Assembly: GCA_047285535.1 (NCBI GenBank)
Contig: JBJBDC010000001.1
Span: 1,152,136 to 1,216,135 of the forward strand
Origin: Synechococcus sp.
Lineage (GTDB): Bacteria; Cyanobacteriota; Cyanobacteriia; PCC-6307; Cyanobiaceae
Direction of reading: 5' to 3'
Length of the DNA stretch: 64,000 nt
In this document: positions 43,301 to 46,300 of the stretch, one piece after another
How positions within the stretch are numbered: position 1 is the stretch's first letter
Layout of the letters: each line of letters opens with the position of its first letter
Program-made: the position numbers

Positions 43301-46300
43301 ACAACTCAGCCTCGCACAAATCGATCAGGATGAGTGAGGACCAAAACCGCCAGGGGGCTTAGTGATAAGTAATTTCTTGGTCCATCAGCACACGGGCGCC
43401 ATGGCGCAAAGATCCGGTCATTTCCACTCTCTCATCATGAGAAAACTGAACGAACACCATCGCTCTCACTCAGACCGATCACGATCATATTATTGAACTC
43501 AACCGACGCAAAGCGCTCACATGAATCAAGGCAGCATCAAAAGAAACTCAGATCCAATTTATCTTTTACAACCCTCAATCTTGACATCGATAATTCCTTG
43601 ATTCCTGAAATTGCTTCTTTCACACAAGCAGGAAGACAAAGGCAAGATCTGTATGGCTTTAACGCTGCGATCGGCAAGAATCTTGGACAAACAAAAGGTT
43701 AGAATCATTGAAAGGAGTTAGATTAAATCAAAAAACCAATCCTGGGATGAAATAGTCCAAGGTGGAGACAAATCCAAATCAGCAAATGACTGAGAACCGG
43801 AATCACTATCTGCGTCCTGTTTGTTGGTGTGGGGGGATTCTCCGACACCACTGGGTGAAGACATGGAGATCAAACCAAAAGAGGACAGAGCCCTTAACCG
43901 TATTAATTGATCATCGAGAAGAGAAATTCAATCCATTATCGATGCACGCCATGGAGACGTTACTCTCAAACAAAGAAATTGAAAGACAGTGCAGATATCG
44001 AAAATCCCGGGACCGCAAGCACTACTTGATCAGAACAGCAATACTAAGAGAGTTACTAGGAATAATTCTTGAAAAGGACGCATCAAGCCTGAGATTTTTC
44101 AAAAATGAGAATGGCAAACCATTTCTTGAAAAACCAACAAAAATTGAATTCAATGTGTCTCACTCCAACGGACTAACGCTGATGGCATTCCATCCAAACT
44201 GTAAGGTCGGCATCGACGTAGAACGAATCAATAAAGAACTAAATTGGAAACCCATTGCAGATCGATGGTTTCCAGCGAAGATCAAGAGAGAACTCCTTTC
44301 AATACCAACAGAGCAACGAAACGAAAAATTCTTTGAATTGTGGTGTCGATTTGAAGCTATTCTCAAATGCAGCGGCCAAGGGATTAAGGGTCTTAACCCC
44401 TCAAATCCTGAACTAGTAGATGCAAAGGAAGCAATCTGGAATCTGGATGTACCTGCAGGCTACAAAGCGATCGTAGCCATGGAGAAGGATCACTGCTAAA
44501 AAGACTCAACATCATGATGGCGTATCAATTCCAAACCCAACATCTAGATCGAAGAGGACATCAGATTAGGGAACGAATCTTGCTAAGACTTCCGAAGCGA
44601 TATTCTTAAATCATCTGAGCCTATGGCCGGCAAGTTGAGCAACGTTGGGCGAATCCTAAATAGATAAAAGCCGTCAAACTCGAAACAAACTGAATCCCAA
44701 TTTTCACCCATGATTTCCTGAGATAAAAATGGCATACTAGCCCGATTATAAGCCGTCAAAAACACCCTATAACCCGACAGCAACTCAGGACGCAAGCAAA
44801 CATTGAGATAGTGACGTGCTTTTATAATGCCGAAACGGAAAACAGTATCCGGATCACCCACAGGTAAAAATTCTCTCCGAACGAAAGCCTCAGGCAGCAG
44901 AGATCGGAACCGCAAGAGAGTATAGACATAATAGTGGAGACAGAAATAATAAAAACTACTGCGATCTATTAGATTTTCATACACCTCGTTAGCATTAATT
45001 GGTGTCTCAATACCGTTAATAGTGATGGAATCATCAACACAGACTGCTGGCATCCGAGGTTGCGATGAGAGGCCGTAGTAGCGAATCCCCAGAATGTAGC
45101 GACCTGGCGAAAGAGAAATTGAAGACCAGTCATTACCCGCATGCTCATTAAGCGAGCTAAATTGCGAAACAGTCGCAAATTCAGGAAATCTATAAACAAC
45201 ACCCGTCCACGAGTCTGCGCTTTGCATACAAACCGAAGTACGAATAGCAACACTCTTGGACACATTCAAAGGACCAATAGTTCCAATCAATGCATGAGTA
45301 TTCCAGCGTGGACCTGTTGTCATCAAGACAGGAAGACTGATTGGCATCTCCATTGTTGAGCGATCAAGCAGGCGCCAGGTTGTTGAGCGAGTTGATGACC
45401 GAGCCAGGAAACGACGATAAAGCCTGCTAATAAAATAACGATTAATTTTATAAAAGAAGAAGGATAAAATCGACAGAGGAATTTCCAAAGCCAAATAAGC
45501 CGAGGCGCAAATACCCTTGAATGAAAAAGACTTATAAGATTTGAATTGATTCATTAATGTTGTCGCTGTTGACTGCCCACGAGGTTACGGTCGGATCGGA
45601 TTGAGTCTCCAAGGCCAGTTGCTTCAAGCACCTCGGCAACAATTGAGGCTGGAGAGTCAATGGTCAAATGATGACCTCCATCCACATCGAACCTGCGCGA
45701 ATATTTAAGCGCTTGTCTCAGATCATCAAGATCTTCTGGTCGGTTAAAACGACTTTCAACTCCGTAAAGTGACGTGACGGGACAACCAATATCAGCGAGA
45801 AGCTTGATGTAGGAAGAACGAGTAACAGGACCAGCCTGCAGGTTTAAACATGTACGGGACTGGAGAACAGGATCCCATCGCCATATCAATCCATCATGTG
45901 TTGAGCGAGTACCACGCTTGGCCAGGAGATGGGCAAATTCGTTTGACAAGCGCGGCATAACTTTCTGAAGTTTACTGACAGCGTCATTCAGTGACGACAT
46001 CGCTGGATGTTGTGGAGTGGATTTTCGATAATCCAACAAGGTCTGAATAGCTGAAACCGAATCATTTTCATTAGCAGGACTAGGGAGAACAGGTTCTACA
46101 AGTAAAAGATGACGTGTCTTTTGAGGCCTTAAATTAGCAATGATTGCAGCCAAAATAGAACCAAACGAATGCCCAATAAGTACCGCTGATTGATTAATTC
46201 GATCATCTAAAAGGCAGGCGATATCAGAAATAAAATCAATCAGCTGGTACGAACCGGGCGCATGCATCGATTGGGAAAGGCCATGCCCACGCAGATCTGG

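Follow-up and report, generated by a model that had tools for sequence, protein, structure and literature searches.

DUF6208 as a candidate accessory of the olefin synthase pathway and its occurrence with ols in the accA slot of a Synechococcus genome

An ST-TE pair at the end of a polyketide synthase (PKS) brings about terminal-alkene formation, and in the work on CurM the ST and TE were reportedly enough in vitro for decarboxylative elimination. In cyanobacteria, the olefin synthase (Ols) and the ADO/AAR pathway are described as mutually exclusive in passages of PMC3903477 and PMC6361979, and the ado-aar-accA-SDR cluster is reported for 111 of 181 genomes in PMC4094844, in whose searchable text the term 'olefin' has 0 occurrences. 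Passages of PMC3903477, PMC6361979, PMC11730487 and PMC4094844 describe the Ols pathway as one polypeptide and mention no conserved Ols partner gene. The locus analysed here would add to this pathway a conserved partner gene, DUF6208, plus, in this genome, a dedicated 4'-phosphopantetheinyl transferase (PPTase).

A DUF6208 gene next to ols in the accA slot

The window, which is the whole 64-kb stretch of Synechococcus sp. DNA under analysis, contains ols and a DUF6208 gene within a low-GC insert (Table 1). The Pfam matches of the ols product read AMP-binding (FAAL), PP-binding, KS, AT, KR, PP-binding, Sulfotransfer_3 and alpha/beta-hydrolase TE, that is, the gene adjoining DUF6208 has the full Ols order FAAL-ACP-KS-AT-KR-ACP-ST-TE, with predicted ST-TE off-loading of the Ols/CurM type; its annotated start is a TTG at 54220, with an ATG one codon downstream. 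A preliminary description of this DNA had placed a 323-aa DUF6208 gene here, with its start inside the ols stop codon, and both statements held. The ORF product matches PF19713 over profile positions 5-289 of 316 with E 3.3e-95 and 319 bits, the cut-off being 25, and a whole-genome profile search recovered this match too. At 45556-45552 the minus strand has the sequence TAATG, in which the stop codon of ols and the start codon of DUF6208 have one base in common. The protein is a typical full-length PF19713 member with no differing feature and has in common with the family the motifs GPRWNTH, RYY, LHYY, EFLPVGDP and YNRxSxP; an NCBIfam search with it matched zero models. A text search of the available library of papers for DUF6208 or PF19713 found zero papers, as had been stated for the word DUF6208.

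Table 1. Features of the accA slot and its flanks in the window
Feature	Position	Strand	Basis or remark
folE	40793-41536	-	Pfam; conserved flank
SDR	41549-42256	-	Pfam; conserved flank
accA	42281-43270	-	Pfam; conserved flank
Low-GC insert (PPTase, DUF6208 and ols only)	43277..54382		GC, synteny
Sfp-type 4'-phosphopantetheinyl transferase	43762..44499	+	PF22624, PF01648; convergent with DUF6208
DUF6208 gene (323 aa)	44583..45554	-	ORF and Pfam PF19713 match
TAATG junction (ols TAA and DUF6208 ATG)	45552..45556	-	sequence
ols, olefin synthase (2888 aa)	45554..54220	-	Pfam domain order
Creatininase-family gene	54383..55225	-	PF02633; other conserved flank

GC content is 42-49% within the insert against 50-55% outside, and synteny with the genomes G224 and G304 ends at 43273/43276 and picks up again at 54531/54543. 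On one side, accA, SDR and folE, the customary ado-aar neighbours in cyanobacteria, have 80-94% identity to G224/G304, and the creatininase-family gene on the other side has 74-75%. The insert holds three ORFs only; a tRNA and Rfam search of the 64-kb window gave zero matches, and promoter and terminator scans around the insert returned no more sites than shuffled sequence did. Two proteins of this genome match PF01648, that of the insert being the second PPTase, and a homologous PPTase adjoins DUF6208 in 6 of 80 genome loci.

The ado-aar-accA-SDR-folE locus (PMC4094844) has the same flanks as the locus described here and the same slot as the aar-ado of the same-genus genomes, in which ADO lies beside accA in 5 of 5 cases. 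ADO and AAR (PF11266, TIGR04058) gave 0 matches in the genome under study, a single contig with a completeness of 99.99%. This absence is expected of an Ols cyanobacterium, and no aar or ado remnant was found. Instead of ado-aar, it is ols-DUF6208, with or without a PPTase, that fills the slot here and in loci L047-L049 and L051-L054, and the same filling was found in L059, L067, L074, L076 and L092. A creatininase gene likewise borders ols in L047-L049 and L051-L052, ols and DUF6208 stand alone between creatininase and accA in L051-L054, and Cyanobium-type loci have a slot with just these two genes. Judged from gene content and order, the three-gene insert of ols, DUF6208 and PPTase has evidently replaced aar-ado in situ at the accA slot of this genome, a replacement not contained in the preliminary description, and DUF6208 evidently moves with ols as a cassette.

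Co-occurrence and linkage of DUF6208 and Ols

Two samples of 401 genomes each were used, a phylum sample and a class sample. The phylum sample has DUF6208 in 16 genomes and a full-length ST-TE match (E <= 1e-147) in 15, spread over 8 family codes and all with DUF6208, which reproduces the counts of the preliminary description; in the class sample, DUF6208 is carried by 31 of 31 Ols genomes. With both samples pooled, DUF6208 accompanies an Ols-type ST(-TE) match in 41 of 41 distinct genomes, a figure that overstates the number of events because related genomes are not independent. No fewer than 11 family codes and three phyla are represented among the carriers of the pair.

Across both samples, DUF6208 without an Ols-type ST(-TE) match is confined to three genomes, G246, G518 and G560, the last two being 85-87% complete and in 480 and 670 contigs. 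G246 (160 contigs, 4504 withheld bases) bears out an earlier remark that one genome has DUF6208 and no Ols: it has two ADO genes and zero ST-TE match, and its DUF6208 gene heads another PKS operon, of KS-AT-ACP and KS-AT-cMT-KR-ACP followed by a PF00975 TE. Because of this genome, a strict bond of the DUF6208 family to ST-TE or olefins does not hold. DUF6208 is absent from the phylum-sample genomes in which ST precedes an NRPS condensation domain (G035, G059, G150, G372) or a PF00975 thioesterase (G228). In trees of 23 rows, DUF6208 and ST-TE have two starred clades around the window in common, of 4 and 9 rows, and their patristic distances correlate with r 0.85, the pairs not being independent; from these congruent trees, DUF6208 can be taken to evolve in parallel with ST-TE.

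In the phylum sample, ols and DUF6208 are adjacent in 3 of the 15 genomes (G000, G160, G214), lie 0.21-2.36 Mb apart on the same contig in six (G296, G077, G230, G174, G131, G038) and are on separate contigs in the other six, in agreement with both the six gaps of 0.2-2.4 Mb and the 12 non-adjacent genomes pointed out earlier. Sixteen of the 31 class-sample pairs are adjacent and 5 more are 1.2-6.4 kb apart, making a total of 21 of 31 within 6.4 kb; by this count, linkage is much commoner than the preliminary description had found. Among the 75 genome loci whose upstream flank reaches 1 kb or more, TE is directly upstream of DUF6208 in 18 and Ols lies within 10 kb in 23, which makes Ols by far the commonest DUF6208 neighbour family (23 loci against at most 13 for every other family). 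DUF6208 is usually the next gene 3' of ols on the same strand, with a stop/start overlap in 26 of 48 linked loci and a spacing of 2-12 nt in a further 8, starts having been picked heuristically. Unlinked genome loci (n=57) are mostly of the Pleurocapsales type, and genomes of the G131/G174 type are unlinked too.

For metagenome loci, an Ols C-terminus directly upstream had been given before in 19 of 57; a rescan has TE in this place in 26 of the 54 loci that extend 1 kb or more upstream. The adjacency in MAG CUG2217 was found again (L047). Of the carriers named before, Pleurocapsa is among the 80 loci listed, together with Xenococcus, Hyella, Waterburya, Prochloron, Lyngbya confervoides, Aphanothece and Chroococcus; the list does not contain Picosynechococcus, Stanieria, Geminocystis or Gloeothece. 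ST-TE is also directly upstream of DUF6208 in two MAGs without PsbA/D, one of Acidobacteriota and one of Chloroflexota, and the available flank 5' of KS showed no FAAL match in the non-cyanobacterial loci L109, L203 and L221. The fusion reported earlier exists as well: P0123, a single predicted protein of 2492 aa, reads KS-AT-KR-ACP-ST-TE-DUF6208. No other DUF6208 fusion was found among proteins of 567-2000 aa, a range outside which P0123 lies.

Predicted structure and fold relatives

An AF2 model of the DUF6208 protein (pLDDT 91.3, pTM 0.88) shows a helix at residues 13-52 followed by two beta-rich domains that carry a helical insert. In an alignment of 56 DUF6208 sequences with a mean column identity of 36%, 18 columns are invariant; numbered with the window protein as reference, and thus all present there, they include R83, N85, H87, R158, H207, Y209, S273 and R300, and Asp174 and Glu228 are nearly invariant. 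Model confidence and invariant columns together indicate that DUF6208 is a real, constrained protein.

The N-terminal segment had been described as a hydrophobic helix. The model does contain the helix; its hydrophobicity is moderate, the best 19-residue Kyte-Doolittle window having a family median of 1.40 and reaching 1.6 in only 16 of 56 sequences, and on these values a membrane-spanning role is not established. The segment has a basic C-terminal flank (median 4 K+R), and the model would be compatible with DUF6208 possibly associating with the membrane. A helix spanning the membrane would put the TE and DUF6208 domains of the fusion protein on opposite sides, which counts against it.

VIA-align searches with the model returned 6ANS from Burkholderia cenocepacia (Z 10.9, 243 aligned residues), 3U07 (VPA0106; Z 9.2, 223 residues) and 2P3Y (VPA0735; Z 9.0, 254 residues), the best match after these three having Z 6.1, and Foldseek matched 6ANS with E 7e-7 and TM 0.48. 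These matches begin at residue 24-29 of DUF6208 and may therefore take in the N-terminal helix. By sequence, 2P3Y, 3VB9 and 3U07 are DUF1254-DUF1214 members, so the whole-chain fold of DUF6208 resembles that of 6ANS and of the VPA0735-like proteins of this group (2P3Y/3VB9 VPA0735, 3U07 VPA0106), whose aligned sequences are larger, with 446-540 aa against the 323 aa of the DUF6208 protein. The likeness is one of fold: hhalign of the two family alignments gave a probability of 0.5% and E 0.13, the DUF6208 protein had zero Pfam match to PF06863/PF06742 and falls outside these families by sequence, and a PDB sequence search with the DUF6208 family profile returned chance-level matches only (E 0.2 or worse). 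It gives DUF6208 no function, because 6ANS, VPA0106 and VPA0735 are themselves uncharacterised; the literature passages retrieved for DUF1214/DUF1254, VPA0735, 2P3Y, 3VB9, 6ANS, 3U07 and VPA0106 contained no functional study, two of them merely giving the name of the fold or of the locus. In the ESM Atlas, the protein fell only near unnamed or PPC-type small clusters (0.91-0.92), with low recognition. Pfam, NCBIfam, PDB sequence and top fold matches included no hydrolase (alpha/beta hydrolase, thioesterase or lipase), though a hydrolase domain or fold may still be present. Complex prediction of ST-TE (609 aa) with DUF6208 gave 0.00 in two runs without controls and is neutral for interaction.

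Candidate roles of DUF6208 in the olefin pathway

Every comparative test run supported the earlier reading of DUF6208 as an olefin-pathway accessory, this support being purely genomic. On these gene comparisons, the DUF6208-Ols partnership is well supported and DUF6208 is likely a functional partner of the olefin pathway; because the family travels with Ols, often as the next gene downstream, it probably supplies a component hitherto missing from terminal-alkene production. We lean towards DUF6208 being a dedicated, co-inherited accessory of PKSs ending in ST-TE, with Ols as the main case. In this role it would act where the synthase off-loads its product, as suggested by a conserved link to ST-TE and not to the FAAL loading module and by the fusion at the TE C-terminus. 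Its N-terminal hydrophobic or amphipathic helix would most likely dock the TE end at the membrane, and DUF6208 may assist in releasing the 1-alkene, which is very hydrophobic, or in passing it on. As an alternative at the same site, it might bind the sulfated intermediate, an anion, given the many Arg and His among the invariant residues. A role specifically in off-loading or membrane hand-off is offered tentatively. According to passages of PMC11730487, Ols genes of Xenococcus and Geminocystis gave olefins in PCC 7002 although the DUF6208 genes of these donors had not been moved with them, so a cognate DUF6208 partner is not required; a DUF6208 copy of the host, if it has one, may have served. 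In Picosynechococcus sp. PCC 7002, ols and DUF6208 are reported to be unlinked, and a passage of PMC6361979 has the ols deletion failing to grow at 22-27 C.

A position at the other end of the synthase, where DUF6208 would supply or present free fatty acids to FAAL by hydrolysing lipids or acyl-ACP or by binding fatty acids at the membrane, would meet a plausible need, since Ols is described as using free fatty acids, with lipases hypothesised as their source and no acyl-ACP thioesterase known in cyanobacteria (passages of PMC11730487), and a lineage that exchanged aar-ado, a user of acyl-ACP, for ols would be newly in need of a fatty-acid supply. Invariant Ser, His and Arg with nearly invariant Asp174 and Glu228, and a G246 gene heading a PKS operon without a loading module, would fit as well. 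We consider this role unlikely, however, given that the conserved adjacency is to ST-TE and is kept where FAAL is unmatched upstream of KS (L109, L203, L221), that P0123 is fused at the TE end, and that the model is beta-sandwich-rich, with hydrolase families unmatched by Pfam, PDB sequence and top fold hits, an absence of little weight. The association with ST plus an Ols-type TE, and the absence of DUF6208 where ST precedes a condensation domain or a PF00975 TE, would also agree with an enzyme or binder for ST-TE anions that edits stalled 3-sulfooxy-acyl intermediates or handles PAP/sulfate, for which Arg83, Arg158, Arg300, His87, His207, Asn85, Tyr209 and Ser273 might, if they cluster in space, form an anion site. 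DUF6208 stands beside a PKS without ST in G246, and ST plus TE is said to be sufficient in vitro for CurM, which makes this chemistry equally improbable.

Retention of the unlinked pair in many genomes could instead reflect a companion that leaves Ols untouched and adapts the cell, for example its membranes, to alkenes or modifies the released alkene, and literature passages do place cyanobacterial hydrocarbons in membranes. The stop-start overlap, the fusion and the tree congruence suggest stoichiometric co-production, and, according to passages of PMC6361979, PCC 7002 can manage with alkane pathways in place of Ols, meaning that other hydrocarbons are tolerated; we accordingly give such a companion little credence. 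Shared ancestry and hitch-hiking beside ols, with no functional link, would be consistent with the non-independence of kin, with an unlinked set dominated by Pleurocapsales-type loci and with the Ols-free DUF6208 of G246. That reading is very improbable, since the pair is kept even 0.2-2.4 Mb apart and across the 11 or more family codes and the three phyla mentioned above, G246, G518 and G560 are the only Ols-negative genomes of both samples with DUF6208, and DUF6208 is carried along in cassette replacements of merely two or three genes. A far-reaching version of the accessory role, in which ols plus DUF6208 is the true minimal alkene module, with DUF6208 an obligatory catalytic or product-extracting subunit of ST-TE, and is traded, with or without a PPTase, with aar-ado by homologous recombination at the creatininase/accA slot, is a speculative possibility that we regard as somewhat doubtful.

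Ols is regarded as sufficient by itself, one protein leading from fatty acids to terminal alkenes, and biofuel engineering has taken it up as a target; a conserved second component would alter how the olefin pathway is reconstituted. The DUF6208 family gains a testable biological context and, via the shared fold, provides a lead for the widespread, uncharacterised DUF1254-DUF1214 proteins. The swap of aar-ado for ols-DUF6208 at accA is a natural experiment showing which genes are needed for the switch, and suggests how genomes could come to have either the one or the other of the two hydrocarbon pathways. If ols and DUF6208 do form the minimal module, cyanobacteria, including picocyanobacteria thought to be alkane-only, would have a one-step hydrocarbon switch.

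DUF6208 and its olefin synthase neighbour

The 323-aa protein matches the Pfam family DUF6208 with E 3.3e-95 and 319 bits (cut-off 25), and no NCBIfam model matched it. In the 2888-aa ORF, the Pfam domains run AMP-binding (the loading domain, FAAL), PP-binding, KS, AT, KR, PP-binding, Sulfotransfer_3 and alpha/beta-hydrolase TE, which is the architecture of an olefin synthase (Ols). The minus strand reads TAATG at 45556-45552, so that one base belongs both to the stop codon of ols and to the start codon of DUF6208. The adjacency given in the preliminary description is right at its coordinates.

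Features of the window and of the G246 operon
Feature	Position	Strand	Remark
folE	40793-41536		flank of insert
SDR	41549-42256		flank of insert
accA	42281-43270		flank of insert
Low-GC insert	43277-54382		flanks 40793-43270 and 54383-58297
Sfp-type PPTase	43762-44499	plus	in low-GC stretch
DUF6208 gene	44583-45554	minus	323-aa ORF, PF19713
ols	45554-54220	minus	2888-aa ORF, directly upstream of DUF6208, same strand
Creatininase-family gene	54383-55225		other flank; then S1, Tab2 and Cu-oxidase_4 genes
G246 DUF6208 gene	L139 7960-8919	minus	first in operon
G246 PKS operon and surroundings	L139 1-7963; L142 15680-19599

Among 401 genomes of the phylum (first sample), we found DUF6208 in 16 and a full-length match to the window's C-terminal sulfotransferase-thioesterase pair (ST-TE, E <= 1e-147) in 15, all 15 of them with DUF6208, reproducing the earlier counts. 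Both searches were repeated in 401 genomes of the class (second sample; 5 Ols genomes common to both), with E <= 1e-80 for ST(-TE) and the Pfam cut-off for DUF6208. Here 31 genomes matched ST(-TE), 25 over nearly the whole query, 2 partially (G477, G552) and 4 in the ST part only (G507, G536, G544, G709), and DUF6208 is present in 31/31. Both samples together give 41/41 distinct Ols-type genomes with DUF6208, counts that include related, non-independent genomes, and the carriers spread over at least 11 family codes. In the window genome's own family, none of the other members sampled has DUF6208 (0/29 in the first sample, 0/39 in the second); the small-genome members of this family look like picocyanobacteria.

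Three genomes carry DUF6208 without an ST-TE match: G246, whose operon is described below, and G518 and G560, where the missing ols may be an assembly gap because these genomes are 85-87% complete and split into 480 and 670 contigs. The 5 first-sample genomes with the ST domain in other settings have no DUF6208; in four (G035, G059, G150, G372) an NRPS condensation domain comes after the ST, and in G228 a PF00975 thioesterase does. Separately, the same-genus genome G304, which has aar-ado but neither DUF6208 nor an Ols-type TE, encodes a 462-aa ORF (C1:2187381-2188196) whose sulfotransferase domain shares 35% identity with the Ols ST. Two-piece DUF6208 profile matches within one open frame (G633:C4:234915-235841, G670:C245:13357-14274, G518:C108:7505-8449) could be a mid-protein insertion or local divergence.

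Physical linkage is frequent. In the first sample the pair is directly adjacent in 3/15 genomes and merely near in none, lies on different contigs in 6/15 and, as previously described, 0.21-2.36 Mb apart on one contig in 6/15; in the second, it is adjacent (under 200 bp) in 16/31, with 5 more at 1.2-6.4 kb. We kept 80 of the 114 genome loci found, and among the 75 with at least 1 kb upstream Ols is directly adjacent in 18 and within 10 kb in 23 in all, on the same strand every time; for metagenome loci with as much upstream sequence it is adjacent in 26/54 and near in 2 more. ORF clustering over the 80 genome loci places Ols as top neighbour family (23 loci), followed by folE (13), CpeT (13) and accA (12). 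With DUF6208 starts picked heuristically, the 48 linked loci include 26 in which the ols stop and the likeliest DUF6208 start overlap and 8 in which 2-12 nt separate them. Most unlinked loci are of Pleurocapsales type (Xenococcaceae, Hyellaceae, Waterburya, Pleurocapsa) and may represent few separation events. Trees of DUF6208 and ST-TE, each built on the window and 22 linked loci, are congruent, both with an identical starred clade of 4 (window, L047-L049) and an identical starred clade of 9, in which these are joined by Lyngbya confervoides and L051-L054. Between the two trees, patristic distances have a correlation of r 0.85 over 253 non-independent pairs.

The hydrocarbon slot beside accA

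GC content falls from 50-55% to 42-49% over window ~43-54 kb, and this stretch contains three ORFs only, PPTase (4'-phosphopantetheinyl transferase), DUF6208 and ols. The whole window genome (99.99% complete, one contig) gave no match to the alkane pathway proteins ADO (PF11266) and AAR (TIGR04058), and has a second PPTase at another site. ADO lies ~1.2 kb from accA in 5/5 same-genus genomes of the sample. G224 and G304 carry, in this order, folE-SDR-accA, ~2 kb with aar-ado, and creatininase-S1-Tab2-CuOx, and their 76-78% DNA similarity to the window ends at 43273/43276 and restarts at 54531/54543. Neither blastn nor tblastx detected an aar-ado remnant in the window, where tRNA and Rfam matches were also absent. 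An ado-aar-accA-SDR(-folE) order is reported for 111/181 cyanobacterial genomes in PMC4094844, in which a term search found 0 occurrences of 'olefin'. The window genome has lost aar-ado, and an ols-DUF6208-PPTase cassette has replaced it at precisely this locus.

The accA slot of the window relatives L047-L049 likewise holds ols-DUF6208 plus PPTase; the MAG L047 is collinear with the window, with a DNA identity of 71.6%. L048 and L049, labelled Phycisphaerae and Crocinitomicaceae MAGs, are probably mis-binned, since they have cyanobacterial flanks and the creatininase-ols-DUF6208-PPTase order and no psbA was found in their genomes. In the Cyanobium-type loci L051-L054, whose accA is 81-82% identical to that of the window, the creatininase-accA interval contains only ols and DUF6208 (ORFs of at least 90 aa), and five Prochloraceae-type loci (L059, L067, L074, L076, L092) have ols-DUF6208 in the slot. 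What takes the place of the two-gene alkane module is thus a set of two or three genes in which DUF6208 is always included. The window genome's nearest sampled relatives by flank identity (76-78%) bear aar-ado, and the more distant L047 has the ols cassette; the slot has therefore probably been swapped more than once.

Other DUF6208 contexts and the predicted protein

ST-TE lies directly upstream of DUF6208 also in an Acidobacteriota MAG (L109, a 513-kb contig) and a Chloroflexota MAG (L102), genomes in which PsbA/D searches gave no match. The available DNA of L109 and of several large metagenome contigs (L203, L221) showed no FAAL match upstream of KS, so that the conserved link of DUF6208 is to the off-loading end. 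A phmmer search of 1.84 billion representatives returned 295 proteins at E <= 0.001, among them the 2492-aa fusion already noted in the preliminary description (P0123), which again read KS-AT-KR-ACP-ST-TE-DUF6208 and retains the DUF6208 N-terminal helix behind a ~45-residue polar linker; no further fused form was found among proteins of 567-2000 aa. A Cellvibrio MAG encodes a 482-aa member, and the 'Candidatus Gracilibacteria' MAG of L116, with four PsbA/D matches in 6.0 Mb, is evidently a cyanobacterium. In three metagenome contigs (L166, L192, L200), at ~12.9-20.7 kb of each locus, further PKS parts (AMP-binding-like, KR, AT, KS) lie downstream of ST-TE/DUF6208 on the opposite strand, placing the pair inside a larger convergent cluster, not a simple Ols.

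G246 has two ADO genes and gave no ST-TE match in the first sample. The end of its DUF6208 gene and the beginning of the following gene overlap, and the operon continues with KS-AT-ACP, KS-AT-cMT-KR-ACP, a stand-alone PF00975 thioesterase that bears a TubC docking domain, and an LCM-type methyltransferase, without ST or FAAL. Genes upstream encode two EF-hand proteins and a phycobilisome core-membrane linker. This operon indicates that the DUF6208 family can serve another lipid-type PKS and tempers a claim of specificity for sulfate-dependent alkene formation.

In the confident AlphaFold2 model (56 sequences; pLDDT 91.3, pTM 0.88), a helix (residues 13-52) precedes two beta-rich domains, which have a helical insert. 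VIA-align against 48,161 chains ranked 6ANS first (Z 10.9, 243 residues), then 3U07 (VPA0106, Z 9.2) and 2P3Y (VPA0735, Z 9.0), the fourth best reaching 6.1, in agreement with Foldseek. VPA0735 and VPA0106 are DUF1254-DUF1214 proteins, as checked by sequence; profile-profile comparison of DUF1254-DUF1214 with DUF6208 was null (probability 0.5%), and the literature on these three relatives described no function. The 18 columns invariant in the family (S31, W60, P82, R83, W84, N85, H87, W116, R158, P169, H207, Y209, P231, G233, Y269, S273, P275, R300) look like a specific Arg-/His-rich putative site. The N-terminal segment is only moderately hydrophobic (median best 19-residue window 1.40; at least 1.6 in 16/56 sequences), is followed by a basic stretch, and could serve as a signal-anchor, in-plane anchor or structural helix.

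Possible roles of DUF6208

These data show that DUF6208 is inherited together with ST-TE synthases as their partner, that it is in many cases co-translated with them, and that it travels with them as a cassette. We infer that it would act at the off-loading end of the synthase, where it may dock the TE at a membrane, take up the nascent 1-alkene or bind the sulfated intermediate. A role on the substrate side, supplying free fatty acids, has its appeal, since PMC11730487 gives the origin of the Ols substrate as unknown, but it fits poorly with the loci without a FAAL match. Rivals to action at the off-loading end are also that DUF6208 handles PAP or sulfate or edits stalled intermediates, that it is a physiological companion without contact with Ols, or that the association is mere hitch-hiking. 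Passages of PMC11730487 report that Xenococcus and Geminocystis Ols genes function in PCC 7002 unaccompanied by the DUF6208 genes of their source organisms, so strict cognate pairing is unnecessary; as PCC 7002 is itself an Ols organism, that experiment is no test of DUF6208 dispensability.

A full-text literature search for 'DUF6208' and 'PF19713' returned no paper. Term searches of PMC3903477 and PMC6361979 revealed nothing about a neighbouring or accessory gene; in PMC11730487 'accessory' is absent, and its passages name no partner gene. DUF6208 is probably a conserved, so far unrecognised component of the known Ols pathway, and the replacement of one cassette by another at the hydrocarbon locus beside accA is likewise new.
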